64,000 bases of DNA from Candidatus Omnitrophota bacterium (GTDB lineage: Bacteria; Omnitrophota; Gorgyraeia; Tantalellales; Tantalellaceae): contig JAQUQS010000001.1 of assembly GCA_028715965.1 (NCBI GenBank), positions 97,332 to 161,331 of the forward strand. Reading direction: 5' to 3'. Numbering within the stretch: position 1 is the first letter of the stretch; the number at the start of each line of letters is the position of its first letter. Below the pieces are notes generated by a model that was not told the DNA's origin, did no database searches, and saw nothing but the letters and a program-made list of their open reading frames with translations. The translations under genes were made by a program, and so were the position numbers. Positions 46,406 to 63,606 of this stretch are shown piece after piece.

Positions 46406-46424
46406 ATGCGCTCCATCTCCCGTT

Positions 46425-47216
46425 CTATCCGCCTATCACAACATCCTTGATAAGTCCGGCCAATTCTATGGCCGCGTCCTTTTCCTCGCCGCCTATGATC
46501 TGACCGCCTCCCCTTGGGGGCGGAGAGAACACCTTCACGACCCTGGTGGGGGACCCATCAAGGCCTATGTTCTCCGGCTCGCAGGCGACATCTTCCGCCG
46601 TCCAGACAACTATCTCGGCCTTCTTTGCCTTCATCTTACCCTTGAGGGACGGAAGCCTGGGTTCGTTTATCTCTTTTACCACCGTGAATAATACCGGTAT
46701 AGGCGTTTCGACTATATCATAACCCTCTTCGGTCATACGTTCGACCACAGCGGAGGTCTTGTCCAGTTTTTCGATCTTTTTCACATATGTTACCTGCGGA
46801 ATCCCCAGATGCATGGATATACCGGGACCTACTTGGGCGGTATCCCCGTCGGAGGCCTGTTTCCCGCAGAATATGATACCGAAATCTCCCACCTTCTTTA
46901 TGGCCTGTGAGATAGTATAGCTGGTGGCCCAGGTATCACTGCCGGCGAACTTCCTGTCGGAAAGCAGTATAGCGCTGTCACAACCCATGGATATGGCTTC
47001 CCGCAGGGCTTGGTCCGCCTGGGGCGGCCCCATGCAGATAACAACGACCTCGGAATCCCCCAGCTTCTCCTTGACCCTTATGGCTTCTTCAATGGCGTAC
47101 ATATCAAAGGGATTTATGACCGCTGCCACGCCTTCACGCTTGAGCGTGTTCGTTACCGGGTCTATCTTCACGTCCGTCGAGTCCGGAACCTGTTTTATAA
47201 GGACCAATATCTTCAT
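46425..47216 (-). CDS. etfB: Electron transfer flavoprotein beta subunit.
   Basis: The 263-aa ORF begins MKILVLIKQVPD and has the EtfB family signature. Confidence 0.9.
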   Translation of the reverse strand: MKILVLIKQVPDSTDVKIDPVTNTLKREGVAAVINPFDMYAIEEAIRVKEKLGDSEVVVICMGPPQADQALREAISMGCDSAILLSDRKFAGSDTWATSYTISQAIKKVGDFGIIFCGKQASDGDTAQVGPGISMHLGIPQVTYVKKIEKLDKTSAVVERMTEEGYDIVETPIPVLFTVVKEINEPRLPSLKGKMKAKKAEIVVWTAEDVACEPENIGLDGSPTRVVKVFSPPPRGGGQIIGGEEKDAAIELAGLIKDVVIGG

Positions 47217-47235
47217 TGTTGCTCTTCCTTCCGGC

Positions 47236-48396: not shown

Positions 48397-48490
48397 ATCT
48401 TCTCCTTACGTTTTCGTGACCCGTAAAACATCACGGACTTTACCGGGCCAAAGAATTTGAGTTTCAAGATATAATTGATCTAAACCGGGT

Positions 48491-49753
48491 TCATCCTTCG
48501 AACTTCTTAACGACCAGGCTCACATTATGCCCGCCAAAACCGAGAGAATTACTTAGCGCTACCTTAACATCGGCTTCTCTGGCGGTATTCGGGACATAAT
48601 CAAGGTCGCAATCAGGGTCAGGGTATTCATAGTTGATTGTGGGAGGCAGAACTCTTTCCTCTATGGCTTTAGCGCATGCGATCAGCTCTATCGCGCCTGT
48701 AGCGCCTAACAGGTGCCCGGTGACGCCTTTAGTAGAACTTACCGCCATTTTGTAAGCATGGTCACCAAAAACCTTTTTTATGGCAGCCGTTTCCATCTTA
48801 TCATTGAGCTGCGTGGAGGTACCATGCGCGTTTATGTAGTCTACTGCTTCCACGTTAAGTCCGGCATCCTCTACGGCGGCCTTCATGCATCTTATAGCGC
48901 CGTCCCCTTCGGGATCAGGAGCTGTCATATGATACGCGTCCCCGCTCATACCGTATCCCACGACCTCACAATAGATATGGGCCCCTCTTTTCTTGGCGTG
49001 CTCCAGCTCCTCAAGTACCACTATAGCCGCGCCTTCGCCCATTATGAACCCGTCCCTTTCCCTGTCGAACGGGCGTGAAGCATGTTCCGGGTCATCGTTC
49101 CTGGTGGTCAGCGCCTTGAGGGCGCAAAAACCCCCGAATCCCATTCTCGTTATAGCCGCTTCGGACCCTCCGGCCACCATTATATCCGCCTCATCCCTCT
49201 GTATGATCTTAAAAGCGTCCCCTATTGAGTGGCTGGCGGTAGCGCAAGCTGTGACCGCCGCGGAGTTCGGGCCTTTGAACCCCAGCTCTATGGAGACCAG
49301 GCCGGACCCCATATTAACGATGAGCATGGGGATAAGGAACGGTGACATCCTGGATGCCGCTACCGTCTCGTTCTCCGACATTATGTATTTTGAATGCTCT
49401 TTCTCTATGGTATGGAGCCCGCCTATACCTGACCCGATATATACACCGGCCCGCTCGGTATTGATCTTGGAGACCTCTATCCCGCTGTCGTCAACAGCCA
49501 TCTTGGCGGCGGCTATCGCGAACTTAACGAACGGATCCAGCCTTTTTTCCTGCTTGGGGCTTATGAACAAGGTCGGGTCGAAGCCTTTGACCTCTGCGGC
49601 TACCTGGGAATTAAACGGAGTAGGATCGAAGGCGGTAAGACGGGCTACACCCGTCTTACCGTTAACCATCGCATACCACGCATCTTTGACATTGTTCCCT
49701 ACCGGGGTCACTGCGCCGGTCCCTGTAAGGACAACTCTTCTTTTATGGGACAT
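48491..49753 (-). CDS. fabF: Beta-ketoacyl-ACP synthase II.
   Basis: The 420-aa ORF has the KAS II active-site Cys region (..[10 protein letters not shown]..) and His/His motifs. Confidence 0.9.
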
Positions 49754-49776
49754 AATCGGATAATCTTATTTTTAGA

Positions 49777-50016
49777 TTACTTGGCTGCTTTTTCTTCGAT
49801 ATAAGTGATAGCCTCTCCGACCGTCGTGAGCTTTTCGGCGTCTTCGTCCGGTATTTCAGCCCCGAACTCTTCCTCAAGCGCCATAACAAGCTCAACAGTA
49901 TCCAGAGAATCGGCACCAAGATCGTCTATGAACTTCGCATCTTCTCTGACCTCTTCGATCTTTACACCAAGCTGTTCAGCCACGATCGCTTTGACCTTTT
50001 CAGCTATCTCCGACAT
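49777..50016 (-). CDS. acpP: Acyl carrier protein.
   Basis: The 79-aa ORF has [21 protein letters not shown], the phosphopantetheine attachment Ser. Confidence 0.9.
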
Positions 50017-50110
50017 TGTTCCTCCTTTTACGCGTTTTTAGTTGCTACAGTTAGATACCTATTAATGGCTTACTGTCATTCTGGCAAGCCGTAGAGCTTT
50101 CGGCCGTGGC

Positions 50111-50854
50111 CTACATCACCATTCCGCCGTCAACTTTTATTACCTGACCCGTTATATAAGAAGACCCTTCACCGACCAGGAAAAGCGCCAACTTTGCCAC
50201 ATCTGAGGTATCCCCCATCCTTCCGAGGGGGATAAGCCCCAAAAGCTTCTCTCTCGCCTCCGCGGACAGCTTATCGGTCATATCGGTCTGTATGAACCCG
50301 GGAGCTATGGCGTTAACATTGATATTTCGGGATCCCATTTCCTTGGCTACCGTCTTGGTCAGGGCTATAAGCCCTCCCTTGCTGGCAGCATAATTAGCCT
50401 GGCCGGCGTTCCCCATGACCCCTATTATGGAAGCCATGTTCACTATCCTGCCGCCGCGTTGCTTCATCATAGGACGGGTCACTGCTTTTATACAGTTGAA
50501 AGCGCCCTTAAGGTTCACGTCAAGTACTGAATCCCATTCCTGTTCCGACATTCTAAGGATAAGATTATCCCTGGTAATGCCGGCATTGTTGACAAGTATA
50601 TCTAATCTTTCAAAATTGTCAAGGGTTTTCTCCACGAACCCGGTCACTTCTTCGAGCGAAGTAACGTTGACCTTGGCTGTCAGGACCTTCCTGCCTGTCG
50701 CATCTTCTATTTCCTTTTTGGTAGCGGCCAGGAATTCCTCGTTCACATCACATATGGCAAGGTCCGACCCTTCCCTGGCGAACAGGAAAGCTATCTCTTT
50801 CCCTATCCCCCTGGCCGCACCCGTTACCATGGATACCTTATTCTCGAGTTTCAT
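50111..50854 (-). CDS. fabG: 3-oxoacyl-ACP reductase.
   Basis: SDR signatures are present (TGAARGIGKEIA; YAASKGG). The start was moved to MKLENKV at 50854, which sits 4 nt downstream of a GGGGGT RBS and downstream of the promoter -10. The ORF track extends to 50890. Confidence 0.9.
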   Translation of the reverse strand: MKLENKVSMVTGAARGIGKEIAFLFAREGSDLAICDVNEEFLAATKKEIEDATGRKVLTAKVNVTSLEEVTGFVEKTLDNFERLDILVNNAGITRDNLILRMSEQEWDSVLDVNLKGAFNCIKAVTRPMMKQRGGRIVNMASIIGVMGNAGQANYAASKGGLIALTKTVAKEMGSRNINVNAIAPGFIQTDMTDKLSAEAREKLLGLIPLGRMGDTSDVAKLALFLVGEGSSYITGQVIKVDGGMVM

Positions 50855-50880
50855 CTTACCCCCTGTTTTTTTCGAACTAA

Positions 50881-50908
50881 ATTGTAACAACTATAAATGT
50901 TTTGTCAA
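50881..50908 (-). promoter_or_regulatory. Sigma70-like promoter for fabG-acpP-fabF.
   Basis: The minus strand reads TTGACA-N16-TACAAT. The fabG ATG at 50854 follows about 25 nt downstream of the -10, with a GGGGGT RBS. Confidence 0.5.
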
Positions 50909-50917
50909 GACAATTAA

Positions 50918-50942
50918 GGCCCGGGGCGGACATGTCCGGGCC
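50918..50942 (-). terminator. Stem-loop downstream of the PilZ gene (weak terminator candidate).
   Basis: GGCCCGG-(11 nt)-CCGGGCC, a 7-bp GC stem. It is followed on the minus strand by CUUAAUUGUCUUG. Confidence 0.35.
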
Positions 50943-51068
50943 GACATATGGTAAATACTCTGTTCTTTTGGACAAGATCGGGAGAACATGATGTGCCATG
51001 GGTCATTTTATCGTTTTTTACGTATCCCGCCATGCCTGTACAATAAGTTTATCCCCGCGGCACAGGAC

Positions 51069-51431
51069 CTATTCTAGGGATTGGGAATGATATTGTTCCA
51101 CTACGCGGTCAACAAGCTCCCTTTTACCATCTCCCATCTCCTGGAAAAGAACCGCTACTATACACATATTGTTGGTAGGCATTTTTTCCATCCTCAATAC
51201 CTGGCCGACACACACAACGGGATCCTCGACCGGAGAAAAACTGATCTTCAGGTCCATAAGCGCGCCTTCTTTGAGGAATTTGTTGTAATAGAACAACATG
51301 CCCCCGGCACCCAGGTTTATCACGGGTACCATATCCCATCCACCGGGGCCTTCATGAGGCCTGACCCTGAACCTTACAAGGAACTGTCTTTTTACTCGTT
51401 TATACTGTCGTCTTTCAGCGCCTCTATACAT
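51069..51431 (-). CDS. PilZ-domain protein, a putative c-di-GMP receptor.
   Basis: The 120-aa ORF has an RxxxR motif (ERRQYKR) and an N/DxSxGG-like motif (NLGAGGMLF), spaced as in PilZ domains. Confidence 0.7.
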   Translation of the reverse strand: MYRGAERRQYKRVKRQFLVRFRVRPHEGPGGWDMVPVINLGAGGMLFYYNKFLKEGALMDLKISFSPVEDPVVCVGQVLRMEKMPTNNMCIVAVLFQEMGDGKRELVDRVVEQYHSQSLE

Positions 51432-51624
51432 GAATGTTTACCTGCCGTATATTTGTCGGACTTCTTTCTGTTCTGTATAGTATACCTTAATATACTTATG
51501 AATTACAAGTGCGGCTTCCGCCGTTCCCTCCGCCTGCGCATATTCCTCCCGTCAGGCGATATTCATAAATGTAATTTTACATCCGGCCGGGGTTATTTAC
51601 AAGAAGTTATTGTTCGGGGCACGC

Positions 51625-53226
51625 TCATGGACAGGCAGTATCATCCGACGATATTTTACTTGTTTCCGTCGAGAACCATCCTCCGGTATAGGCATCGATA
51701 TACGCGGTCAGCTCTTCTACTCGATGAACATCTTTCCGGGCACCGCCAAGGTCTTTCCTCTCTTTCCGCGAACCTGTGGCCCGTTCTCTATCCAGGATAA
51801 GCTGGATAGTCCTTTTTCTCTCGAAATATAACCGTGTAACCTCATCAAGGATATCATTCCTAAGCTGGACCATGAGCTTACTGCGCACGTCGATACTCGT
51901 TTCCGAAGCGTCCCACACCAGCTCTGATAGGTCCCAGGTGAAGTTGACCCCCCAATCGTTGTCCGTTTCCCGGGGGCCCTCGAACACGTAAGAGGTGGTA
52001 GCACTGGTATATATCTCCTTATTATCATCGCTGGACTCGGAAAAGCTGAGGGATACCCTGGGGAACAACCCCTTCCACTTCAGGGCATCTCTCCACTTCC
52101 TTATTTTTGAGGGAGATACGTCGGCATACTCGACGGCCTTTCTACATACTTCCTTTATATCCGGCCCCGGGGCCATGAACCATTCACCGTAACCCCCATC
52201 TGTCCCTGTATCCGGCAATTCCACGTTACCCATACAGAGTTCATACACCTCGGAACCACGTCCCAACAATATCCCAGTACCACACTCGCCCGATCCATAT
52301 ATTTCCATGCACGGAACGGACCCGGCACCAGGGGCCCGGAATATCATATCCCATCCATGGCCATCTTTCCTTAAAGCAAAAACACCATCGCCCGCGAGCG
52401 CGAATATGGTCCCTCCCCCATAGCCCACGCTCACCGGATCATATGCTGACGGTAACTTTTCGGGTATTTTAAGATAAGTCATATCGTCAGGGGCCACCAT
52501 GTATATGTTCCCGTTATCAAGCACGACAAAACCGTCCGTATCCTCGCAATATTCAATGTGTCCCGCAACAGGCGTTATAACGTCGCTCTCTTCTTCCTCC
52601 GCGGGTTCCGTCATATCAGCCTCATCCTCTTCACCTGTGTTCGCGTCGTGGAACGCCAGGTCCCGCCAGTTCTTTTCCCGTGCGTCACAGATGAAGAATC
52701 TCCCATCCGAAAGGCATGCTATCCGGCCCCCGCTATTAAGCACATCCACTATCCGCCCGCACCTTTTGGACAGACCTAGTTTACTTATACTTCCTGCCGG
52801 CGTTCCAGAAAAATATATCTCGCGCTCGCTCCAGACTACCATTCCATCGTTATCGGCGGACATCCCCGTCATCCTCCCGGGTGTTCTCTTGATCTCCCAC
52901 CCTTCATCCTCCTTGCGATAAACCAAGCCTTTCACGGTCAGGACAACGACCTCTCCCCCCATGAAACATATATCCTTTACCCCGCCGCTCCCGGCCGGAA
53001 GACGCTCTTCTTTCCAGTTATTTTTCCCTTTCTCTGAAACAAAGAGACCTTCGGTCGTTCCCGCGAATATCCTGTCATTGTCCTGGTCTCCGGCCACAAG
53101 ACATAACACCTTACCGCACAATCCTTTACACGATATTTCACCTCCACTGGCAACACCTGTAAAGAACAGGAATATGACCAGCGATATCACCTTTATTTTC
53201 AATGGATATTTCTTCACGGACAACAT
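51625..53226 (-). CDS. Secreted hypothetical protein with a signal peptide, a Gly/Asp-rich N-terminal half (possible beta-propeller), an acidic linker and a C-terminal domain of unknown function.
   Basis: The 533-aa ORF has an N-terminal hydrophobic signal (LKIKVISLVIFLFFTGVASG), BNR/Ycf48-like repeats (e.g. IFAGTTEGLFVSEKGKNNW), an acidic stretch (EEDEADMTEPAEEEESD), and AAGGGGAAAT directly before the ATG. Confidence 0.8.
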   Translation of the reverse strand: MLSVKKYPLKIKVISLVIFLFFTGVASGGEISCKGLCGKVLCLVAGDQDNDRIFAGTTEGLFVSEKGKNNWKEERLPAGSGGVKDICFMGGEVVVLTVKGLVYRKEDEGWEIKRTPGRMTGMSADNDGMVVWSEREIYFSGTPAGSISKLGLSKRCGRIVDVLNSGGRIACLSDGRFFICDAREKNWRDLAFHDANTGEEDEADMTEPAEEEESDVITPVAGHIEYCEDTDGFVVLDNGNIYMVAPDDMTYLKIPEKLPSAYDPVSVGYGGGTIFALAGDGVFALRKDGHGWDMIFRAPGAGSVPCMEIYGSGECGTGILLGRGSEVYELCMGNVELPDTGTDGGYGEWFMAPGPDIKEVCRKAVEYADVSPSKIRKWRDALKWKGLFPRVSLSFSESSDDNKEIYTSATTSYVFEGPRETDNDWGVNFTWDLSELVWDASETSIDVRSKLMVQLRNDILDEVTRLYFERKRTIQLILDRERATGSRKERKDLGGARKDVHRVEELTAYIDAYTGGWFSTETSKISSDDTACP

Positions 53227-53425
53227 ATTTCCCCTTTCACATTTTGTCTTGACAAGAGGACAACTTTTGATAGAATAGAGTTGTCAATACAAGCGCGGAT
53301 CCGATTCAGGATTTTTCGCGTAATAAAGCGGGTGATCATCCCCTACCCTCACCCGCTTTTTATAATATCTCTTGTTTTATTTTTTGTCAATATTTTTTTG
53401 ATAATACGTTATCGCGTGCTCTCCC

Positions 53426-53454
53426 TTGCGCCATATTCCCTTGAAGTGTATAAT
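53426..53454 (+). promoter_or_regulatory. Candidate promoter placing the GH1 ATG 7 nt after the -10 box (leaderless transcript).
   Basis: TTGCGC-N17-TATAAT; the ATG at 53462 lies 7 nt after the -10. An alternative upstream promoter TTGACA-N16-TAGAAT lies at 53249-53276, overlapping inverted repeats TTGACAA/TTGTCAA and GACAACT/AGTTGTC. Confidence 0.4.
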
Positions 53455-53461
53455 TACAGAC

Positions 53462-54757
53462 ATGAAAAAGGACTTTCCCGACAATTTCTTCTGGGGCGCC
53501 TCTACTTCGTCCTATCAGGTCGAAGGCAATAACACGAACACCGACTGGTGGGAATGGGAAAAAGCCGGATATACGGAACCTTCCGCCGCCGCGTGTGACC
53601 ACTACAACCGGTTCCGGGAGGATTTCGCCCTCGCTAAGGCCCTGGGACACAATGCCCACAGGCTGGGGATAGAATGGGCCCGCCTGGAACCCGAAGAAGG
53701 GTTTTGGGATGAAAAGGAATGGCTTCATTACGAACAGGTGCTATCTCTGCTGAAAGAGCTCGGCATAGAACCGTTCGTCACCCTGCAACATTTCACGCTT
53801 CCCTTCTGGCTGTCAAAAAAGGGCGGATGGACCAACGATGATTCAACAAGATACTTCGTACGTTTCGCGGAACGATGTATAACACGGCTAGGAAGACATG
53901 TTAAATACTGGATAACGATAAACGAGCCCCATATGGCCGCGTTCATCCCGCATTTCTACGGCAAATGGCCCCCGATGATAAAAGACCAGGGAACGGCGTT
54001 ACATACGCTTTTGAACATGCTTAAGGCGCACACAGGAGCCTACGCGGCCATGCACGCGGTGCACGCGGCTGCGCGTGATCACGATGGCATATCACATCCG
54101 TATATCGGCCTGGCCAAGGCGGTCGCGGCGTTCCATCCGTGTTCTGCCATATCCATACCGGACAGGATGGCCGCGGCGACGCGATCCGATTTCCACAATC
54201 ACGCTTTTATCAGGTCGGCGCTAAAAGGCGTAGTCGAGATCCCCGGATTGCCGAAAGAAAAGCTACCTTTATGTAACGCGATGGACTTTATCGGCCTGAA
54301 CTATTATTACCGCCAGTTCATCTCTAGCGGCAAACCCTGCCAGGAAGAACCGCTGGGAGGGCAATGCGCGCACGCGTCCCATCCGGGTGAAGGGCAAAGA
54401 ACGGACATGGGATGGGAGATATATCCTAAGGGGATCTATGAGGTCTGTATGACGTTCAGGAAATATAAAAAACCTGTGCTGATCACCGAGAACGGCATCG
54501 CGACAGGGAACGACAAGACCCGGACAGCGTATATAAACAGCCACCTCTTCTGGTTGTCAAAAGCCCTGAAAGACAAACTGGACCTCCGAGGATACCTTCA
54601 CTGGTCCCTGCTTGACAACTTTGAGTGGTCGGAAGGATATTCCAAGCGTTTCGGGCTGGTAGAAGTGGATTTTTCCACACAAGAACGACGCGTAAGGATG
54701 TCCGCCAAGCACCTGTCCCGGATCATATCCTCGGGCCTGGCCCCGCGGTCATCCTGA
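53462..54757 (+). CDS. Glycoside hydrolase family 1 beta-glucosidase.
   Basis: GH1 motifs are present: FFWGASTSSYQVEG; TLQHFTLP; NEP (acid/base); LITENG (nucleophile). The start was set at the ATG at 53462. The track start at 53426 is a TTG that overlaps the -10 box. Confidence 0.9.
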   Translation: MKKDFPDNFFWGASTSSYQVEGNNTNTDWWEWEKAGYTEPSAAACDHYNRFREDFALAKALGHNAHRLGIEWARLEPEEGFWDEKEWLHYEQVLSLLKELGIEPFVTLQHFTLPFWLSKKGGWTNDDSTRYFVRFAERCITRLGRHVKYWITINEPHMAAFIPHFYGKWPPMIKDQGTALHTLLNMLKAHTGAYAAMHAVHAAARDHDGISHPYIGLAKAVAAFHPCSAISIPDRMAAATRSDFHNHAFIRSALKGVVEIPGLPKEKLPLCNAMDFIGLNYYYRQFISSGKPCQEEPLGGQCAHASHPGEGQRTDMGWEIYPKGIYEVCMTFRKYKKPVLITENGIATGNDKTRTAYINSHLFWLSKALKDKLDLRGYLHWSLLDNFEWSEGYSKRFGLVEVDFSTQERRVRMSAKHLSRIISSGLAPRSS

Positions 54758-55693
54758 CACCTCATTAACATACGTTCTTATCTCGTCCAGTTCCGTATCC
54801 GACAATCCCCAGTCGGAGCTACCAACGTTATCCGCGAGTTGGGACACCTTCCTGCAGCCAACTATACAACTGGACACACCGGGGCAGGCAAGCACCCAGT
54901 TCATGGCGACCTGTGATACCGGCACTCCACGCGCTGAAGCGATCCCTTCAAGCCGGGAAACGAACGCTCTTGCCTTGCTCCAGAACGGTTCACGGTAAAA
55001 TTTGTACAGGAAAGACCTGGCATCGCTTTTCGCGAACTTCGGCGGTTCCTTGTACTTGCCGGACAAAATACCTCCACCGAGAGATCCGTATGAAAGTATG
55101 GATATCCCGCTTTCCGCGCAGAACGGTATGACCTCTTTTTCGATCCCCCTGTCAAAAAGGGAATATTGCATCTGGTCGGATGTTATCTCCGTAACAGCTC
55201 TGGCGGCAGCTATGAGTTCCGCGCTGAAATTCGATACACCGATATGTTTGATCTTCCCTTCGGACTTCAACCGTTCCAGTGCCGCGAACGACTCTTCCGG
55301 GGCAGTACCCGGATCAGGCCAGTGACACTGGTACAGGTCTATAACATCTGTCCTTAAACGTCGAAGCGAGCGCTCGATCTCCTCTCTTATGAAAGCGGCG
55401 GTAAGATTAGGCCTTATACCCTTTTCGGTCTTCTCCAATCCGCACTTGGTGGCCAGGACTACATGCCCTCTCTTTCCTTCTATCGCCTTCCCTATGACCT
55501 CTTCCGACCGGCCGTCACCGTATATCGGCGCCGTATCTATGAAATTCACGCCCAGGTCCAGCGCCTCTTTTATTACTTCCTCGGATTCCCTGTCATCGGC
55601 GCCGCCCCAGGAAGTATCGCCCCCGAACACCCAGCTACCAAGACACACGGTAGAGACCATGGTCCCGGTATTCCCGAGTTCCCTGAACTTCAT
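54749..55693 (-). CDS. Aldo/keto reductase.
   Basis: The 314-aa ORF has the AKR (beta/alpha)8 signatures (FIDTAPIYGDGRSEEVIGKAI..). Confidence 0.9.
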   Translation of the reverse strand: MKFRELGNTGTMVSTVCLGSWVFGGDTSWGGADDRESEEVIKEALDLGVNFIDTAPIYGDGRSEEVIGKAIEGKRGHVVLATKCGLEKTEKGIRPNLTAAFIREEIERSLRRLRTDVIDLYQCHWPDPGTAPEESFAALERLKSEGKIKHIGVSNFSAELIAAARAVTEITSDQMQYSLFDRGIEKEVIPFCAESGISILSYGSLGGGILSGKYKEPPKFAKSDARSFLYKFYREPFWSKARAFVSRLEGIASARGVPVSQVAMNWVLACPGVSSCIVGCRKVSQLADNVGSSDWGLSDTELDEIRTYVNEVSG

Positions 55694-55736: not shown

Positions 55737-55763
55737 ATTATACTTCACCCGGGACAATTGCAA
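55737..55763 (-). promoter_or_regulatory. Candidate promoter for the aldo/keto reductase gene.
   Basis: The minus strand reads TTGCAA-N15-TATAAT, about 45 nt upstream of the AKR ATG. Confidence 0.3.
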
Positions 55764-55832
55764 AGATATTAATCTGACATACCAGGCATACGAGGCGGGT
55801 CCGGCCTTTGGAGGCCTGGAACATGAATGGCA

Positions 55833-58800
55833 TTACGCGGACCGGAGGAACATCAGGAGTTTCTGCTGGTCCTCTTTCCACGTGTTCACTACCGGGGTCA
55901 TGATCGGCAACGATATGCTGCCATCAAGGATCTTCTCGATAACATCCGGATCGTTCTCGTCGATGATGTCCGGGATGGATATCATCATCTTAAGATACCG
56001 GATGATGTTAGACCTCACTTCCTGCCTTACCTCTGATGGAGCCTCCGCCGCGGCCGCTTGTCTTTCGGCTATCCTCTTATAGTTCAATAATCCCTTGCCA
56101 AGCATCACATGGTTCACGAGGTCTATCATCCCGCCGGGCGGCAGGCTGTCCTCGCTGACCACGGCAAAGCTTTTCTCCGGGTCCGGCATAAGTTCCCTGA
56201 GCACTTTAAGCGCCATCTCCCTCATGTCACGGGACACGAACACTATGGCTTTCGGCGTCTTGTCCTTATAATGATCGTCGCCCATTTCACCTATTACCCT
56301 GGAAAAGACATCCCGGAACTCGGCTTCGGCATCGGCCGCTCCCGTGTTATATCCGCGCAGGATAGTATCCATCCGGTATTCTGAGCTTTTTCGTAATAGC
56401 TGTTTGAGTTCCGACTCAAGAGACACCTTGTCCGACATTGCCCCTACATCAGAAGGTCCGGGCGTTATTATCCAATCCGCCGTGTCGGGGACCATGTCAC
56501 CCATCATTACAGCGGCTGCCGTCATCTTCTTCTCCGGGGACGCCACAATATGATCTTCTTCCGCTTCTTCAAGAGCAAGCCCGGAATCTTCGCCTATTGC
56601 CACGGGCGCCGTCACCGGTCCCCGCGCGGGTATAAGGCTATCCATATCAAGCTCATCCGCTTCAAGGGGCGGATATTCCCTTTCAAGGAGAAGACCCCTG
56701 TAATCCGCGTCCATGAACGAGTTGAATATGGCCGCCACATTGCCGATGTGCCTCTTCAATTCCGCGGTCAGTATCTCTTCAGGATCAGCCAGCTCTCCCA
56801 TACCCATAAGTACGGCTACATCGGTCCATATCTCCTTTTTAAGCATATCCTGTCTGTCCGCGTCCATAAGACCGCTATCATCCCATACTATGTTCACGGC
56901 CGTCCTCAAGGCGACAAGGAATTTCCTGGCCTGTGAAAGAGCCTCGACCTCCGTCTCACCAAGCACCTGTTCCCCTCGTGTCAGGGTCATGGCATTCTCC
57001 CTGAAAGCGTCCGGGCGAGCCCAGTCCCACGTGGGCATACCCGCTACAGTACGCCCCATCCATGTTATAAGGTCTATCGTCCTGAGCCCACCACGCCCTT
57101 TCTTGGTATGGTAATTGCCGGGGTTAATGTATGTGATGGACCTCATCGGGTCAGCCATATCCATTTCATCCTTGCCCTCTACGATCGCCTTGAAATCCTG
57201 CCGGAGCACATATCTCGACATCAAATGTTTGAACGTCTCGGCGTCCCTTATCGCCTCCTCGAACCCTTTACGGATATCTTCAACTGATACCGGCCCGGAA
57301 ATATATCTCCAATCCATTATGGACCTCATACCCGCGATGTCCCTTTCCTCGAAGTAATCCAGATAATCCTTCTGGAATTCATCCATGGTAAGCGCTTTTA
57401 TATTGTGGTCCGCGCCCACTTCCGGATACGCGGGATAATCCAGAGTGACACCGGTTATCTCTCCGGCCAACATCCCGAACTCCGCGGCTTGCCTGCGAAG
57501 CGTAACGATGTCGTCCCGGTCCTTGATAAGGATGAACAGATCAAGGTCCGTCCCATAAGGCGCGGCTCGGCGCGCGTAACTTCCCATACCTATAAGGGTA
57601 ACTTTGTCGGCTATACCCATGAATTCCGCGAGCCTGATTATCGTATCGTCTATGAGGTCCGAATATGCCGAACCAAAGTCGAATTCCTTTCCGCTGAGGG
57701 CCGCGTCACGGAACTGGCCTTTAATGCCCTGTAGTTCCTCTCGGAATTTGTCCCTGGCATATTCCACATATTCTTCCAGGGTCGCGAAAACCTCACCAGC
57801 ATCCTCCTCTTGTTCCTCCCTGTATATTGTCGACCGCATGGCCGCGGCGGCCTGTTCGGGAGTAATACCGGTAAGTGAGGTGAATTTCGCCCGTTCCCAC
57901 TCAGTGTATGCCGCGTTCGCCCCTTCTTTATACGGAGCGGCGGCGTATTCAAACCCCATCATCATCCTCAAGCCTTCCGGAAAACTGTGCCTGTCGGGAT
58001 CGCGGTTATCGAAGACCGTGAGCATCCTCCATGGTGACCCGACGTATATTTCATCCAGCCACGGGTCCGAACTGAGATCCTCCCTCTCTCGCTCATCAAG
58101 TTCAGGCAGAATATCATTTATCGTGACCATGTTCTCCGTAAGGAGGTTTCCCGCGTTGTCCCTCAATAGGTTCATTTTCACGTCCTCATCCATATCCATC
58201 CCCAGAAAAATGTTCAACGCGAACGTGGCGACATATGGGATCGCCAATATCACCTCAATGTCTGGGCGGGCCGCGTCTATCATCGCGATCATCTCGTCCG
58301 CGTCCCATCCGGAGAAGGACGAGTCGTCAAAGATCACGACTTTCCCTCCATCAGGGATCCCGTCAAGTCTCGCGAGCCATCCAGAACGCGCGCCGTTCTC
58401 GTCATGGTTCGAGTATATTTCCACCGGTTCCCCGATATCGGCCCTTAAGGTTTCCCTCGCCATCTGGTATACATACATTTTCGACTTGTTGGACGTTTTC
58501 CCCAGTATCACGCCCCAGGCCCCCTTATCATAACCTTCCAGTTCCCGATTTATCGCTTCGGCCATGCTCCTTACTTTGTCCCGGAACTCCTCGAACGTTA
58601 TATATCTCAGATTGTCCAGGAGCGCGTTCCTGATCTCCTCCAGTTTGGAGACATGCTGCGGGAATTTTGCCTTATATTCCTCGAACTTGTCCGACACGTT
58701 GCGCCTAAGCGCGTCAAAGTCCCCTATGAGGCGCCTTTCCGGGACCTCGAATTCAGACCCGAGCGCTTCCAGGACTTCCGCATCTTCGGCGAAAGGAAGG

Positions 58801-61800
58801 GGCTCTTCGGGGTTATTCCGGCTCCACACCCAAAGGTTGCCTTTTTCCCCTTTAGCGGAATCCTCCACGATATTCAACTGGTCCGTGACCCCTACTCCCC
58901 ATAGTTCCAGGTCACTTTTCGCGAATACCCGGTTATCCATAAGAAGAGTCTGGTTAAATCCCGCCACGGGCTTGATCACTATTGTTCCGTCGGGCCTGAG
59001 TTTGTTAAGCAAACCCTCATTCTGCAACATGTTCACGAGATCGTTCGTTATGTCGGGTCCGGCGGGATTCATAAGAAGTATGCTGTCCAGGGAACCGTCG
59101 GGCATGGCCCTCAGGATATCCATATCCGCCCTGAGTATGGCCAAACGCGGATCGTTCCGCCTTTGCGCCCTGAGCCGACCCCTCTCCCAGTCCCTTGCCC
59201 ATCCCCCGTATAGAGGCACCTTGTTCTCCGTATCGTATATATCCGTGGCTATAACGGCCATATCCGGGTTCGCCCTTACCAGCTGGTCCGCGAACGTGGC
59301 CGTGCCACATCCTATTTCCAGCACGACCTTATTTATACCGCTCGCCGCGTCCGATCTTTTTCTAAGGATATCCAACGCTTTTCTCGCCTCGCCGGATGGG
59401 TTCCCCCGGGTCAAAAGATAATCCATTACCCCCGGCTCCGTCGTCCCTGTCCCCGAGCGCTCTCCCGTCCCGGGGAACATGGAATCCTTAAGACCCGCGA
59501 GGTCCGACCAATTGCCAAGCGTAGCGTGTAATGCCGTCATCACCCCGGCCATGAAGGTTATGTATGCCCCTGCCGGGGACGCGACCAAAAGGGGTGATAT
59601 CATCATTAACCCCGCGCCATAAATAAGCTCTGCTATCGGCCCCGACGCATAAATGACAGCTCCTTTGGCCCCTTGTTCAAAGTTCATGTGCCTCACCGCG
59701 AACGTGGGGAATATCCTCTTCCCGCGAGCGGTTTCCCAGCTCATCACGAATTTCGGCTTTGCCCCGAAGATCTTTCCCGCGATGAAATGCCCCACTTCGT
59801 GTATCGCTATAGCCGGGATGAAGAAAAGCGTCAAGATCAATATATTATTCAAGAGACCCGGTATCCCGAAATCGGTCCTGACACCCTCATCCGGCATAGC
59901 GGGCATATTAAGCAACAGCATCTCGACCGCCTGCGCTGATGTCCTTTGCAGCTCATAGTTGCTCCACCATCTTATTATGAGCGCCTGCCTGGCGGTAAGC
60001 CTGGAAGTATCATCCCGGTATTGGCCGAAAGCCTCCCTGACCGCGTCCATATCGTCCGGCGCGAAAAACGGGTCCTCGTTCCTGATCAGGTCGAAATAGT
60101 ACGCGGTCCTAGCTCTATAATGCTCAGCGAGGTCTTTCACTCCCTTAGCCGCAAGCTCACGGTCCTCCGGAGATACCGGTTCTCCGATACCTGCACCCCT
60201 CAGCTTGTCGAGCGCGGCAAGGGCCAGTGCCCTTATGACAAAATCCCTTTTCTCCTTCACCATGGTATCGTCCCTTGCCAGGTCCAGCATATCGGACACG
60301 GACACGGGCTTACTGTCATATACCATGATCTTTTCCGCGTACCCGGACGGCTGCTCTTCATACATCTCATATCTCATCTTAAGGATCCGGCCGTCATCAC
60401 CCCGTTTGTACGAGTTCAGTATACCTTCCACGACCGGGGTATTCCGCAGGACCCAGCCCTCCTCGCCAGGGGAAAGCCATAGCCAGTAATCCGCATCGTT
60501 CTCAAAACCGCTTATCTTCACTTCTTCGTCAAGGGACATACCGCTCTCTCTGTAATAGAAATGGAGCGCTTCATGTATAAGTCCGGAACGCAACATGTCA
60601 TCCGAAGCGAAATTTGATACCGGCAGGGCAATGAACCCTTTTTCCGTGTCCGCGTGCGCGTAATTCTTATCGGCCGAGAACCTGAGCTCTTTCGTTCTCA
60701 GAACGACTATCACTCCCTCTATCATGCGTCTCTGATCAGGGGTGAGCGCTTCCTTGATACTTTCGTAATGTGACGCTATGGCCCCGGCCTCGGCCTTCAT
60801 TCTTTCTGTGTAGCCGATATCGGCACCGGACACTCCTGAGAAAGACATGCTCGTGGATTGTCGTTGGAGCCCGGCCGTCCCGTCCCCTTCACCGGGCACA
60901 GGTGCCTTGCCAGCAGGTGACAGGGCATACAGCAAAAGGCTGATAAGGCCCATCCCAATGGTAAGAGAGACGCACAGACCGGGTTTCGTCCGGGAAAGGG
61001 CAAAAAGACGGTCCAGCTTTCCTCTGTAATCCACTCCCCTGATCGCGGATACAGCCCTTGATGACAACAGTTTAAGCGTAAAATGTCTAAGTACGTGATA
61101 TCCCAAAAGTGTTCCGACGACCACCATCGCGTGCACCGGAGTGAACCCGCTTATTAGTATCACGCTCACCACAATGAACGCCATAACGGCCTTTTTGTGA
61201 GCGTCGGAGACACGCGCGGGCATGTTCTCCTGCCCGGTCCCCCCGGTAGTACCGGCTTCCGTTCCAGCATCGCCGCTCACGCCCGGGCTCGCGGACGCAT
61301 CGACAAGCTCAGCCTGCGGTCCCAACGGCGGACCGGGGAGGGCTTCACGCCTTTCTTTTCGCGCTTCCGCTACCAGTTCGCTCACCGGTATGCTCACGGG
61401 TCTTCCGATCTCCTTACCATTCCTCATCAAGGCACAATTCAACGTTCCCGACGTGCTGTCGTAAACCACACTCAGGTTCCGGGCGTCTTCCCCTATCGCG
61501 TTTATCACGTTCTTGATATTTCCGTTCTCCCTGCCAAGTTCGGCCAGCACACGCACGGCGGCGCGGAACGCATCTATCTCTTCCTGTCCGCACACGGCTT
61601 CGGCAAGTATCGGGTTGAGCTTGGACGCTACGGCCATCATGGATGCCTTGGCTATCACCGAGCTCAGCATTCTCTGGAGATCCGTGGTCTGGCCGGCTAA
61701 TATCTCATAATACGGGTCCTTGAAATCATCTTTCACGGTGAACTTGGGGAGTATGGATACGTACGATATACCCTTTTTCCGGAAAAGCTCACAGATATTC

Positions 61801-63347
61801 TCCGTATGGAACCCTCCTGTCATGAGCATAGCCGCCTCCGCGGGGCCGCGCACTTCTTCGAACCGTATGTTGTCAAGGAACGCCTCGTCACGCTTGAACG
61901 AATACGCGTAGAACGCGGAAATATCTCCCAGATACTTGTTCAGGTTGGCACAGTCATCCGATATCTCAAGTGTTATACCGTGCTCCTTCGACGCGGGCAG
62001 AAGAAAATCCGTATAGGCTTTTACCGAAAAGGTCTCCCTGTTACCCCGATAATAATAATAGTCCGTCTTTATCAGCTTTATATCGAACATGTTCCGCATT
62101 ATGGACAGATTACGTGAAAGCCTGTTCAATGTCCTTTGTTCGGCGCTGGTATACAATGGCTCCCTGACGGCATCCTCATATTTGTCGAGCTCCTCCATCA
62201 CCCGCGTCCTGTCGACGGATTCATAAACCGTCACATATCCGATATATTTGGAAAGTTCCGGGAACCTGCCCGGGTCGAGGCCTACCTCCCTCACCTTATC
62301 GAACAGATATCCATAGAACGCCCTGAGCGAAAGTCTTTTTGTCTTGAAAGCCACACTCTTTGACACAAGCTCTCTAGACTCGTTCCTTGAAAGCCGCTCT
62401 TTCAGCTCTTCGACAAGAGCGGTGCGTTCGACATTGGCCCTCTCGAAATCTATATCGTCCTCTTTCTCCAAAGCGGACGAAAGAAGAGAAAGGTTACGGA
62501 ACCCGTTAAGTCCAACTCCTGTTACCCTGCCCTTATCCACCAGGTAACGCAGATATTTGCCAAAGTCCATGTTGCCGGATTTATAAGCCGCGTAGGAAAT
62601 ATCGAGACTGATAAGTTCTTTCGAGAAAAGATATACTTTCAGGTTGTTAACAGCACGGGAAAGCTCGCTTATATATCGGTCCACATCCGCCTTGTACGAC
62701 AAAGAATCCCGGTACACCTCCAGGTTGGCCAGATACAATTCTTTGTTCTCAACCCCCCACAACCGTACCTTGTCCGGGTTATTCGCCGCATAAAATTCCG
62801 CGCCGCTTATATCGCCTTGTTTGACAAAATAATCCGCCACTTCCCTGCGTATTTCCGTACCGGTTATGGACGTAAAGGGCGTAAGATCGTACTCACCCAC
62901 GCCCCCTTCCAGGTTCACGAGCCGCACGCCGTATTCCTTACTGATGTAATCGATGATATCGGCTATCTTATGCTGGGCATAAACGTTACAATGCGCGTCC
63001 TGTATATGGACAACGAACTTATCAGAACTTCCTTTGTAGCCGAATTGTACCTCTCCAAGATGTTCGGGTATGGTTATGGTCGAAGCGTCCAGAAGGGAAT
63101 ACGATATGTTATGCGCGTCATCCGTAGTGATCGCGTAGGGGATCTGCGCGGGCTGCTCGATAGCGGACCATGCATCGGTCAATACATTGGTAACAAAAAA
63201 AGCGACAAGAACGACTGTTCCAGTCACTTTTCGCGCCAACCCGTATTGCCCAAACCATGGTCTGAACATAATGAACCTCATAAGTCTTTTGTTTACACGA
63301 CTTACATTGGGCAAAGGTTTTGCTTTACCCTTTTGACCTTCCTGCAT
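55833..63347 (-). CDS. Giant multidomain membrane protein (2504 aa) of unknown function. It has an N-terminal TM anchor, an unrecognised domain of about 640 aa, a Gly/Pro linker, TM segments, HEALH and M50-like HEVGH metalloprotease motifs, a SAM-methyltransferase motif, a PRTase-like motif and a GlnD/GlnE-like nucleotidyltransferase module.
   Basis: An uninterrupted 7515-nt ORF at about 50% GC cannot arise by chance. The motifs read directly from the translation are: TM helix around aa 42-58; HEALH at aa 925 (nt 60561-60575); LFFIPAIAIHEVGHFIAGKIFG at aa 1183 (59787-59801) inside a hydrophobic stretch; KVVLEIGCGTATF at aa 1340 (59292-59330); GGKVVIFDDSSFSG at aa 1670 (58311-58346); SAYSDLIDD...LIGMGSYARRAAPYGTDLDLFIL at aa 1915-1940 (57531-57599); KKGRGGLRTIDLI (57071-57110). 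Confidence 0.9.
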   Translation of the reverse strand: MQEGQKGKAKPLPNVSRVNKRLMRFIMFRPWFGQYGLARKVTGTVVLVAFFVTNVLTDAWSAIEQPAQIPYAITTDDAHNISYSLLDASTITIPEHLGEVQFGYKGSSDKFVVHIQDAHCNVYAQHKIADIIDYISKEYGVRLVNLEGGVGEYDLTPFTSITGTEIRREVADYFVKQGDISGAEFYAANNPDKVRLWGVENKELYLANLEVYRDSLSYKADVDRYISELSRAVNNLKVYLFSKELISLDISYAAYKSGNMDFGKYLRYLVDKGRVTGVGLNGFRNLSLLSSALEKEDDIDFERANVERTALVEELKERLSRNESRELVSKSVAFKTKRLSLRAFYGYLFDKVREVGLDPGRFPELSKYIGYVTVYESVDRTRVMEELDKYEDAVREPLYTSAEQRTLNRLSRNLSIMRNMFDIKLIKTDYYYYRGNRETFSVKAYTDFLLPASKEHGITLEISDDCANLNKYLGDISAFYAYSFKRDEAFLDNIRFEEVRGPAEAAMLMTGGFHTENICELFRKKGISYVSILPKFTVKDDFKDPYYEILAGQTTDLQRMLSSVIAKASMMAVASKLNPILAEAVCGQEEIDAFRAAVRVLAELGRENGNIKNVINAIGEDARNLSVVYDSTSGTLNCALMRNGKEIGRPVSIPVSELVAEARKERREALPGPPLGPQAELVDASASPGVSGDAGTEAGTTGGTGQENMPARVSDAHKKAVMAFIVVSVILISGFTPVHAMVVVGTLLGYHVLRHFTLKLLSSRAVSAIRGVDYRGKLDRLFALSRTKPGLCVSLTIGMGLISLLLYALSPAGKAPVPGEGDGTAGLQRQSTSMSFSGVSGADIGYTERMKAEAGAIASHYESIKEALTPDQRRMIEGVIVVLRTKELRFSADKNYAHADTEKGFIALPVSNFASDDMLRSGLIHEALHFYYRESGMSLDEEVKISGFENDADYWLWLSPGEEGWVLRNTPVVEGILNSYKRGDDGRILKMRYEMYEEQPSGYAEKIMVYDSKPVSVSDMLDLARDDTMVKEKRDFVIRALALAALDKLRGAGIGEPVSPEDRELAAKGVKDLAEHYRARTAYYFDLIRNEDPFFAPDDMDAVREAFGQYRDDTSRLTARQALIIRWWSNYELQRTSAQAVEMLLLNMPAMPDEGVRTDFGIPGLLNNILILTLFFIPAIAIHEVGHFIAGKIFGAKPKFVMSWETARGKRIFPTFAVRHMNFEQGAKGAVIYASGPIAELIYGAGLMMISPLLVASPAGAYITFMAGVMTALHATLGNWSDLAGLKDSMFPGTGERSGTGTTEPGVMDYLLTRGNPSGEARKALDILRKRSDAASGINKVVLEIGCGTATFADQLVRANPDMAVIATDIYDTENKVPLYGGWARDWERGRLRAQRRNDPRLAILRADMDILRAMPDGSLDSILLMNPAGPDITNDLVNMLQNEGLLNKLRPDGTIVIKPVAGFNQTLLMDNRVFAKSDLELWGVGVTDQLNIVEDSAKGEKGNLWVWSRNNPEEPLPFAEDAEVLEALGSEFEVPERRLIGDFDALRRNVSDKFEEYKAKFPQHVSKLEEIRNALLDNLRYITFEEFRDKVRSMAEAINRELEGYDKGAWGVILGKTSNKSKMYVYQMARETLRADIGEPVEIYSNHDENGARSGWLARLDGIPDGGKVVIFDDSSFSGWDADEMIAMIDAARPDIEVILAIPYVATFALNIFLGMDMDEDVKMNLLRDNAGNLLTENMVTINDILPELDEREREDLSSDPWLDEIYVGSPWRMLTVFDNRDPDRHSFPEGLRMMMGFEYAAAPYKEGANAAYTEWERAKFTSLTGITPEQAAAAMRSTIYREEQEEDAGEVFATLEEYVEYARDKFREELQGIKGQFRDAALSGKEFDFGSAYSDLIDDTIIRLAEFMGIADKVTLIGMGSYARRAAPYGTDLDLFILIKDRDDIVTLRRQAAEFGMLAGEITGVTLDYPAYPEVGADHNIKALTMDEFQKDYLDYFEERDIAGMRSIMDWRYISGPVSVEDIRKGFEEAIRDAETFKHLMSRYVLRQDFKAIVEGKDEMDMADPMRSITYINPGNYHTKKGRGGLRTIDLITWMGRTVAGMPTWDWARPDAFRENAMTLTRGEQVLGETEVEALSQARKFLVALRTAVNIVWDDSGLMDADRQDMLKKEIWTDVAVLMGMGELADPEEILTAELKRHIGNVAAIFNSFMDADYRGLLLEREYPPLEADELDMDSLIPARGPVTAPVAIGEDSGLALEEAEEDHIVASPEKKMTAAAVMMGDMVPDTADWIITPGPSDVGAMSDKVSLESELKQLLRKSSEYRMDTILRGYNTGAADAEAEFRDVFSRVIGEMGDDHYKDKTPKAIVFVSRDMREMALKVLRELMPDPEKSFAVVSEDSLPPGGMIDLVNHVMLGKGLLNYKRIAERQAAAAEAPSEVRQEVRSNIIRYLKMMISIPDIIDENDPDVIEKILDGSISLPIMTPVVNTWKEDQQKLLMFLRSA

Positions 63348-63606
63348 GGCTATATTATTATGTATAATAACTATCTTTCTATAAGTTTACAGCCAATACA
63401 AGTTTACCTGTCCACATATAAATATCCAAGTCGCTATTTCTTGCTTTTTTAAACGCTAACAAACGCGGCGATCACCCGGACACGCGCCATACGATCGGAT
63501 CTATATCAGAAAGAGATGTTATTTATTAAATATTGAAAACACATGTGTTTAGAGTTACAATTTTTATGACCGATATAGCCAGCTTAGGTCCAGAAATGAG
63601 GTTCAA

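Follow-up and report, generated by a model that had tools for sequence, protein, structure and literature searches.

The stretch of DNA analysed here (the window) comprises 64,000 nucleotides (nt) of contig JAQUQS010000001.1 from a Candidatus Omnitrophota metagenome-assembled genome (MAG), and the ORF list of the window contains, on the minus strand, a single unbroken open reading frame (ORF) of 2504 codons plus stop codon at positions 55833-63347. The encoded protein is typical of a large family of Omnitrophota proteins with multiple paralogs, in which a conserved N-terminal module (N-module) and a conserved C-terminal module (C-module) bracket a middle region of variable enzymatic content, hereafter termed cargo. 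Amino acids (aa) 27-2504 of the ORF are 100% identical to the 2478-aa NCBI entry PHH49_00815, a hypothetical protein from a Candidatus Omnitrophica MAG, and this deposited product is recorded on two contigs. The gene is thus intact, as a preceding first-pass annotation of the window had assumed in describing one uninterrupted 7.5 kb ORF. No competing long ORFs are listed in the region, and the G+C content of the gene lies inside the normal range of the window. The values of 0.46-0.48 across positions 62000-63500, covering the intergenic region and the 5' end of the gene with the signal peptide-like sequence and the early N-module, and of 0.53-0.56 over the cargo region both fall within that range.

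The start codon of methionine 27 (M27) at position 63269 coincides with the annotated start of the deposited protein and is preceded by the sequence GAGG 6 nt 5' of it, and the equivalent methionine is the start of most homologs. The GAGG spacing and the starts of the homologs therefore make a product of 2478 aa, beginning with M27, the probable true product of the ORF. A promoter-like consensus match was observed at 63354-63381 (minus strand), and its end lies 7 nt ahead of the first ATG (63347). Should the match be real, M27 would be the first usable start codon. The gpmA gene begins divergently at position 63608 on the plus strand. The features of the ORF are compiled in Table 1.

Table 1. 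Modules and other features of the 2504-codon ORF, with amino acid positions, coordinates in the window and the basis of each assignment.
Feature	Amino acids	Position in window	Strand	Basis or remark
Whole ORF		55833..63347	-	2504 codons plus stop; probable start M27 (63269)
Signal-peptide-like N-terminus	27-62	63162..63269	-	hydropathy and N-terminal alignment
Family-defining N-module	63-669	61341..63161	-	
Gly/Pro/Ala/Thr-rich linker	670-715	61203..61340	-	start of variable cargo; similarity to homologs stops here
Hydrophobic segments	~720-738 (possibly 742-760) and 791-809	60912..61202	-	hydropathy; Arg/Lys-rich loop between
HExxH domain, putatively zincin-like	855-1151	59895..60785	-	HEALH (925-929), PGEEGWV (960-966)
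M50/site-2-protease-like hydrophobic segment	1160-1299	59451..59870	-	HEVGH (1183-1187); PF02163 sub-threshold
Probable class I S-adenosylmethionine (SAM)-methyltransferase module	1300-1520	58788..59450	-	motif I VLEIGCGTA (1342-1350); homologs
PRTase-CE-like module	1568-1840	57828..58646	-	VVIFDDSSFSG (1670-1680); homologs passing PF24390
GlnD/GlnE-type nucleotidyltransferase module	1860-2226	56670..57770	-	Pol-beta-type motif G-x-G-S-x10-DLDL (1920-1937); PF08335 helical domain with GGLRTID (2086-2092)
Family C-module	2270-2504	55836..56540	-	alpha/beta domain plus helices at the extreme C-terminus

Sequence comparisons yielded 247 proteins at E <= 1e-3, from MAGs with Omnitrophota or PVC labels, and all of the 120 listed among them match the query from aa 27 to about 610 at 35-55% identity (individual proteins are numbered with the prefix P below). 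The C-module was detected with an iterated profile in 92 of these 120 homologs, in each case with a match ending 1-6 aa from the C-terminus; the family characteristically ends in LRSL or LRAL, the protein of the window in LRSA. In the smallest members, of 888-1122 aa, about 80 aa separate the N-module from the C-module, and the largest one observed extends to 6477 aa, its N-module occupying 70-586 and its C-module 6295-6474. No Pfam family was matched by either module. The ORF of the window displays all of the characters that define the family, namely the signal-peptide-like N-terminus, the motifs of the N-module and the terminal C-module. The first-pass annotation had considered the protein not mappable to a family as a whole and its N-terminal ~640 aa devoid of a recognisable signature; these data instead place it in a large family that is set by precisely this N-terminal ~640 aa and the last ~235 aa, the former comprising a putative signal peptide and an N-module with invariant motifs. 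Its proposal that the protein might belong to a class of long multi-domain proteins of an uncultivated phylum holds, the phylum being Omnitrophota.

A tblastn search with one genome per GTDB species detected 439 relatives. The 74 loci listed among them are all located in MAGs labelled Candidatus Omnitrophota or 'uncultured Planctomycetia' (individual loci are numbered with the prefix L below); among the Omnitrophota labels are Ca. Tantalella, Ca. Aadella and Ca. Omnitrophus magneticus. An assembly may contain up to four or more copies, and 16 of the 74 listed loci comprise tandem pairs on the same strand. No second family member was found within the 64-kb window. The tandem paralogs are 65-74% identical at the nucleotide level, which indicates that the duplications are old, and signs of recent gene conversion between them were not seen. 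At three loci (L039:9830-16515, L062:172-7036 and L065:9929-20597) the N-module and the C-module are located in two consecutive or overlapping ORFs, which suggests frameshifts, pseudogenes or sequencing errors. A second family of proteins with 875-1800 aa and signal-peptide-like N-termini is encoded directly upstream of the family gene and on the same strand at 13 loci (L006:6670-9294, L008:7104-9719, L014:7101-9668, L017:6881-9625, L029:4284-9692 and eight more), and it is not encoded in the window. Its C-terminal sequence ...LPIRPVNxEELRxxYExAxEALIRA shows a weak similarity to the terminal part of the C-module (probability 15% and E 0.0017 in hhalign), and the copy at L017 gave a partial match to the C-module hidden Markov model (HMM).

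The N-terminus of the probable product consists of a Lys/Arg-containing n-region, a hydrophobic core of about 18 aa and the sequence D-A-W-S-A. The family consensus following the core is D-A-W-A, which conforms to an A-x-A site of the signal-peptidase-I type and is succeeded by an acidic stretch; by a manual count from the alignment, about 27 of 31 N-termini match [AST]-x-[AGS] there. Hydropathy analysis detected an N-terminal hydrophobic segment in 105 of the 120 listed homologs. On these sequence features, the N-terminus of the family appears to be organised like a Sec signal peptide that includes a signal-peptidase-I site, or at the minimum like an N-in signal anchor. No further hydrophobic segment was found by hydropathy scanning in 53-59 of the 92 complete members, so that the kinases, other cargo and the C-module would share the exported side with the N-module in those proteins. 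Additionally, the protein is depleted of cysteine. This residue accounts for 0.28% of its sequence versus 1.33% across the 43 remaining minus-strand ORFs in the window (p 9e-8, binomial), only one cysteine occurs within the last ~1200 residues, and the median of the family is 0.31%, with a median of 0.16% for cargo only. Low cysteine content is typical of exported and secreted proteins.

The N-module was modelled with AlphaFold (AF2) using 35 homologs, which resulted in a mean predicted local distance difference test (pLDDT) score of 81 with values >90 across most of the core. The model shows a small parallel beta-sheet whose strands are parted by an all-helical insertion of about 290 residues. 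Four residues of the family motifs at aa 115-121 (IQDAHCN), 145-149 (NLEGG) and 510-517 (TGGFHTEN) are invariant in 38 sequences: D117-x-H119, located after the first core strand of the model, E147 after the next strand and H514 after a late strand. A structure comparison of the N-module returned the erythromycin-esterase-like protein Bcr135 (2rad; score 9.2), the TraB-family protein 8bqs_DQ (8.5), the effector HopBA1 (5t09; 8.2), ChaN (2g5g; 8.0), a further erythromycin-esterase-like protein (2qgm; 7.8), EreC (6xcq; 7.4) and the MARTX effector RRSP (5w6l; 6.9). The spacing of 28 residues between H119 and E147 equals that of H3902/E3930 in RRSP and H85/E113 in Bcr135 (PMC6254334), and together with the placement of the residues it fits the 2His/2Glu site of the superfamily.

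The N-module accordingly shares an acid-x-His motif, a Glu 28 residues further on and a C-terminal G-x-x-His motif with the superfamily formed by TIKI, TraB-PrgY-GumN, erythromycin esterase, ChaN and HopBA1, but differs from it by the helical insertion that splits the core, by an Asp in place of the first Glu and by a nearly invariant Cys after the His. A further difference is that none of the families of the superfamily was matched at the sequence level and that support by Foldseek is not significant. The Foldseek search of the N-module against PDB yielded no significant match, with 2rad, 3b55, 6xcs and 5t09 recurring among the top ten. A Pfam scan of the 38 N-modules at E <= 1 gave noise only, without a match to TraB_PrgY_gumN, Erythro_esteras or Cofac_haem_bdg, and the N-module family profile matched none of the PDB sequences. 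Judging from the model, the N-module is likely to be a divergent, probably active hydrolase with the TIKI/TraB/erythromycin-esterase/ChaN fold. Many members of this superfamily are extracytoplasmic.

With respect to the cargo of the protein, the motifs named in the first-pass annotation are all present and in the order given there, as are the transmembrane-like N-terminus, the Gly/Pro/Ala/Thr-rich linker and the hydrophobic segments; besides the segments entered as such in Table 1, hydropathy indicates more at about aa 1164-1182 and 1238-1285. A comparison of the whole protein with the PDB sequences returned only chance bacteriorhodopsin-like matches in the hydrophobic region (E >= 0.19). For the domain containing the HEALH motif, homologous segments were detected in P0018, P0121 and P0122 only, with one match among the 120 listed family homologs. 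Across all four sequences the HExLH and PGEEGWV motifs do not vary, and the region putatively represents a small family without curated entry that is consistent with a zincin-like domain. The HEVGH motif follows immediately after the hydrophobic segment 1164-1182, as M50 peptidases require, and the match to PF02163 is below the gathering score (16.3 bits versus a cut-off of 27.2; E 0.0063; profile positions 5-106 of 221). The second zinc-ligand motif of M50 peptidases, N-x-x-P-x-x-x-x-D-G, is located in a later membrane helix; its canonical form was not seen here, the closest sequence being a loose GNWSDLAG at about aa 1285-1292. Since an HMMER search of 1.84 billion representatives also detected no homologs of this segment, the likeness to M50 falls short of an established identity. 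The HExxH elements recognised earlier are thus present, the HEALH motif being conserved in three homologs, whereas the regulated intramembrane proteolysis suggested for this part of the protein rests on a sub-threshold M50 match. Both P0018 (aa 663-950 and 1199-1269) and the protein of the window (aa 855-1151 and 1160-1299) combine the rare HExLH/PGEEGWV domain with membrane segments after it and, further on, a zinc peptidase motif embedded in the membrane, which is of the M48 type in P0018 and M50-like in the protein of the window. An HExLH/PGEEGWV domain and a membrane zinc peptidase may form a recurring two-part cargo unit.

The region aa 1300-1520 is probably a class I SAM-methyltransferase. 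This assignment relies on motif I and on dozens of homologs with E-values down to 4e-20, some of them stand-alone proteins of ~300 aa; the methyltransferase HMMs of Pfam (13.8-16.4 bits versus cut-offs of 24-30) and NCBIfam all remained sub-threshold, and the stand-alone homologs scored 22.8-23.6 with Methyltransf_4 versus a cut-off of 24. The adjacent phosphoribosyltransferase (PRTase) module matches stand-alone proteins of 276-348 aa (phmmer E 5e-15 to 1e-4; 1.84 billion representatives), of which P0189, P0212 and P0217 pass PF24390 with 28.0, 30.5 and 33.9 bits versus a cut-off of 27. PF24390 did not match the query directly at E <= 1, and the profile of the module had no match in PDB. The D-D-x3-S-G motif is invariant in the alignment, and PY and FD(H/N)RxPDxHSF motifs are also conserved, so that the homologs support the assignment as a PRTase-CE-like module. 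In our reading, the Pfam family PRTase-CE denotes the PRTase clade of phage and conjugative-element polyvalent proteins (PMC5512222). The gene of the stand-alone homolog P0212 (L077:1734-2780) lies beside cytidine-deaminase-like, terminase-like and ParB-N6/N4 methyltransferase genes, a phage-like context that is consistent with reading the label 'CE' as conjugative or invasive element.

The sole domain that passes its Pfam threshold directly is PF08335 (GlnD_UR_UTase) at aa 2081-2211, with 37.6 bits versus a cut-off of 21 (E 2.7e-9). It carries the motif K-x-x-x-G-G-L-R-x-I-D and is preceded by GMGSYARRAAPYGTDLDL (aa 1920-1937), which satisfies the Pol-beta motif G-[GS]-x9-13-D-x-[DE]; the G, S, D and D of this motif are invariant in a five-sequence alignment. 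Homologs of the module are contained in P0002, P0003, P0005 and P0040, with matches to DUF294/NTP_transf_2 in P0003, and its best PDB profile match is GlnE (3k7d; E 0.013), in which K-x3-G-G-x-x-x-I-(D/E) is aligned. By these sequence criteria the region is solidly identified as a GlnD/GlnE-type nucleotidyltransferase. It resembles GlnD and GlnE in combining the Pol-beta motif with a PF08335 helical domain that carries K-x3-G-G-x-x-x-I-(D/E), but it differs in lacking the HD and ACT domains of GlnD, for which no Pfam match was found in the protein, and the second nucleotidyltransferase domain of GlnE, in its NCBIfam scores of 12-23 bits versus cut-offs of 519-1010 (TIGR01693, 20.6 versus 519; PRK03059, 23.3 versus 1010; both partial matches to GlnD), and in being part of a cysteine-poor, probably exported polyprotein. 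Orthology to GlnD or GlnE was rejected on the absence of HD and ACT and on scores far under the equivalog cut-offs. The nucleotidyltransferase and the PRTase-like module of the first-pass annotation were hence recovered with Pfam support, directly or through homologs, and its methyltransferase remains probable by motif I and homologs with no HMM above threshold.

The combination of these domains was detected in no other protein, in agreement with the earlier view that it is undescribed. The middle region is in fact nearly unique within the family: the nucleotidyltransferase is shared by 4 of the 120 listed homologs, the HEALH domain by one and the remainder by none. The self-contained signalling or processing machine envisaged in the first-pass annotation is not borne out, the middle region being hypervariable and mosaic across the family and its modules not being neighbouring genes elsewhere; in a Rosetta-stone check, genes for single-module homologs of the PRTase and of the methyltransferase adjoined neither each other nor a nucleotidyltransferase gene. 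Between N-module and C-module the cargo spans from zero to >5700 aa, and its Pfam labels include protein kinases, ABC1 kinases, M48 and M50 peptidases, metallophosphatases and a low-molecular-weight phosphatase as well as HATPase, FHA, cNMP-binding, GNAT, phosphoenolpyruvate (PEP)-utilising enzymes, glycosyltransferases and PRTase-CE. The 92 complete proteins display 78 distinct cargo layouts, and 81 of them are connected via at least one shared segment of at least 100 aa, which is a mosaic pattern. The domain combination of the window protein is therefore unique because cargo has been shuffled and not because a recognisable machine has been formed.

This variability is most apparent in 12 genomes that contain the same downstream aldo/keto reductase gene (53-58% identical) together with a glycoside hydrolase family 1 (GH1) gene. 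The family members at this position comprise 888, 893, 1103, 1122, 1464, 1506, 1751, 1883, 2297, 2302, 2607 and 2645 aa and carry unrelated cargo, for example PEP-utilising domains at L001 (P0007), a Ser/Thr kinase at L025 (P0037) and none at L027 and L029. These data clearly indicate a turnover of cargo at one syntenic locus. The neighbourhood that recurs at the family loci of other genomes consists of the aldo/keto reductase, GH1 (on the opposite strand), a 520-533-aa protein of unknown function, FabG, FabF, an acyl-CoA dehydrogenase and electron transfer flavoprotein (ETF). The synteny block extends over positions 45200-55693 of the window and was also found at L001, L002, L013, L016, L025, L027, L028 and L032; it includes ETF beta as well as ETF alpha, which carries a ferredoxin domain. 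The 533-aa ORF at 51625-53226 (minus strand) has no Pfam match and is 31% identical to a protein of ~520 aa at seven syntenic Omnitrophota loci. The position of the gene, which had been regarded as notable, is accordingly one of ordinary conserved synteny with housekeeping genes. The next downstream gene, encoding the aldo/keto reductase, is 139 bp away, and the gap contains a promoter-like consensus match at 55737-55764 (minus strand); if this match is real, the aldo/keto reductase gene need not be co-transcribed.

Taken as a whole, we lean towards the explanation that signal peptide, N-module and C-module form an exported chassis for a variable, mosaic enzyme cargo, similar to a modular effector scaffold. 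According to this proposal, a Sec signal peptide would export the polypeptide, and the N-module would act outside the cytoplasm as a hydrolase (protease or esterase), possibly processing the polypeptide itself. The cargo, in the present case membrane segments, a HExxH zincin-like domain, an M50-like segment, a methyltransferase, a PRTase-CE-like module and a GlnD/GlnE-type nucleotidyltransferase, would work on or in a partner cell (host or prey) and not in the periplasm of the producer, since these enzymes need ATP or UTP, SAM and phosphoribosyl pyrophosphate (PRPP). Export, hydrolase activity, processing and delivery are thus what we infer for this family. The explanation fits the episymbiotic or predatory lifestyle that has been proposed for Omnitrophota (PMC10066038) and the extracellular placement of enzyme domains that has been reported for giant Omnitrophota proteins.

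Several points weigh against the exported chassis. With ~18 aa, the hydrophobic core is rather extended compared with cleaved signal peptides and could represent an uncleaved anchor. The 4 to 6 predicted internal hydrophobic segments are compatible with both an outside and a cytoplasmic location of the C-terminal half, which comprises methyltransferase, PRTase, nucleotidyltransferase and C-module; three M50-like membrane helices, if present, would result in an odd total and hence in a cytoplasmic C-terminal half, and across the family the parity of the internal segments is too noisy in the hydropathy scan to place the C-module. No secretion-system or immunity-like genes are conserved beside the family, the neighbours being housekeeping genes. 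The exchange of cargo is not demonstrably recent, as the tandem paralogs are old.

The topology of the C-terminal half is also the issue in an unlikely alternative, in which the protein would be a regulatory multi-enzyme embedded in the membrane and mostly cytoplasmic, close to the self-contained signalling or processing machine of the first-pass annotation. Sensor or processing parts on the periplasmic side would then be formed by the N-module and the HEALH domain, and an odd number of helices would return the rest to the cytoplasm, where the C-terminal 1200 aa would modify the cell's own proteins or nucleotides. SAM, PRPP and nucleoside triphosphates are cytoplasmic, as are the established regulators GlnD and GlnE, the Arg/Lys-rich loops after segments 720-760 and 1164-1182 fit an in-out-in threading, and an M50-type core would add three helices and make the total odd. 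Moreover, a 2026 preprint reads 'TM-only' (transmembrane-only) long Omnitrophota proteins as membrane-anchored cytoplasmic architectures. However, the M50 match is sub-threshold, over half of the complete members lack internal hydrophobic segments and would hold C-module, kinases and other cargo on the side of the exported N-module, and the single cysteine in the ~1200 aa of the C-terminal half resembles the cysteine-poor family as a whole. A domain combination that occurs in no other protein, with modules that are not neighbours elsewhere, also gives no sign of a selected unit. Somewhat less probable still is a neutral accretion of domains, by which the N-module and C-module would constitute an ordinary envelope hydrolase and the middle region a permissive site at which the general tendency of the phylum towards gene fusion has gathered unrelated domains, without a common role in delivery or as effectors, some of the cargo perhaps being inactive. 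Minimal members at the same locus, housekeeping neighbours, old paralogs and the many unrelated Pfam families that long Omnitrophota proteins are known to tile are in line with this idea, but the cargo has kept its catalytic motifs (the DD of the PRTase, G-x-G-S...DxD, HExxH plus PGEEGWV), and the depletion of cysteine extends through the cargo, suggesting selection on the whole polypeptide. By inspection of the Pfam labels, the cargo also looks weighted to protein-modifying and signalling enzymes and less like a random sample.

Two further origins are very improbable. The PRTase module of the 'PRTase-CE' type described for invasive elements, and the stand-alone homolog encoded beside terminase and ParB-methyltransferase genes, might point to a component of a defence system or to one of the polyvalent proteins of phages and conjugative elements, which are multi-domain proteins with PRTase, methyltransferase and zincin domains and enter the recipient by injection along with DNA. 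This reading was rejected on the conserved chromosomal synteny with fatty-acid, ETF and sugar genes, on the occurrence of the N-module on 1 of 2.9 million viral contigs and on PHROG and PADLOC scans without a match; a Pfam scan likewise detected no MuF, relaxase or other anchoring domain. The sole viral-collection contig with an N-module (L075:1615-3312; IMGVR_UViG_3300045144_000334; 40% identity) may represent a mis-binned cellular fragment or an element-borne copy. The least credible explanation is an artefact, either a chimeric assembly or ordinary genes joined by sequencing errors. A MAG as the source of the sequence would allow for it, but the same 2478-aa product is deposited at NCBI on two contigs, the protein opens with the N-module and terminates exactly with the C-module, as 92 independent proteins do, and the composition is uniform, with no rival long ORFs.

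The exported chassis can be compared with known systems of conserved flanks and variable enzymatic content. MARTX and polymorphic toxins resemble it in the possible mode of working, in that conserved flanks surround a variable array of enzymatic effectors, and the MARTX effector RRSP has the TIKI-type fold that is also proposed for the N-module. In contrast to these toxins, Pfam and NCBIfam scans revealed no RTX repeats, type I secretion signal or autoprocessing cysteine protease domain, and the gene next door encodes the aldo/keto reductase and not an immunity protein; moreover, the TIKI-like domain belongs to the conserved chassis here and not to the cargo, and export apparently proceeds via Sec. 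The family is not a member of the MARTX or polymorphic toxins. Polyvalent proteins (Iyer et al. 2017, PMC5512222) likewise combine many unrelated enzymatic domains, including an invasive-element PRTase, methyltransferases and zincin-like peptidases, whereas the gene of the window is chromosomal, syntenic and vertically inherited, and its family is essentially absent from viral contigs. Two groups of long or giant Omnitrophota proteins also invite comparison, the 'Archaeovorin-type' proteins (West-Roberts et al. 2023, bioRxiv 10.1101/2023.11.21.568195) and the 'multi-enzyme metabolic cluster' class (Nielsen & Lui 2026, bioRxiv 10.64898/2026.06.07.730766). They share with this family the phylum, a tiling of unrelated enzyme domains such as methyltransferases and peptidases, interspersed membrane segments, a signal peptide, the absence of known domains from the N-terminal region and a proposed extracellular or host-directed role, but they comprise at least 10,000 or at least 30,000 aa versus 888 to at least 6477 aa in this family. 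The Pfam scan also found no SecA-DEAD, C39, S8 or dockerin domains in the protein of the window. With 2478 aa and no SecA match it lies outside the definition of 'Archaeovorin' (>30,000 aa, SecA-DEAD, many transmembrane regions), with which it has membrane segments and mixed enzymes in common. Neither the accessible portions of the literature on long Omnitrophota proteins nor a keyword search described a family bracketed by N-module and C-module, a TIKI-like module or a turnover of cargo at an orthologous locus. Long multi-enzyme, membrane-associated Omnitrophota proteins are already known, and in this respect the gene of the window represents a smaller relative of a familiar phenomenon; the bracketed family is apparently undescribed.

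A more far-reaching proposal, which we put forward with more doubt than confidence, is that the bracketed family constitutes an unrecognised delivery system of Omnitrophota, analogous to MARTX or polymorphic toxins and operating in ultra-small episymbionts. A Sec signal peptide would move the polypeptide across the inner membrane, the C-module with its ...LRSL end, invariably at the exact C-terminus, would serve in sorting or translocation, the N-module would perform autoprocessing, and enzyme cassettes, comprising ATP-, SAM- and PRPP-dependent kinases, phosphatases, nucleotidyltransferases, PRTases and methyltransferases, would be released on or into the host or prey. If true, such a system would provide a tractable small model for the giant proteins of Omnitrophota.

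Omnitrophota are abundant, ultra-small and probably host-dependent bacteria that encode very long multi-enzyme proteins without agreed function. The present finding narrows part of this problem to a defined chassis with a clear candidate active site in its hydrolase-like N-module, the minimal versions of which chassis comprise ~890 aa and are experimentally manageable, and the natural variants with different enzyme cargo at one locus offer a handle on export, processing and delivery. Two new protein domains, the N-module and the C-module, would be defined by this family. With respect to genome annotation, odd domain combinations in Omnitrophota should be read as cargo shuffles within families and not as bespoke machines.

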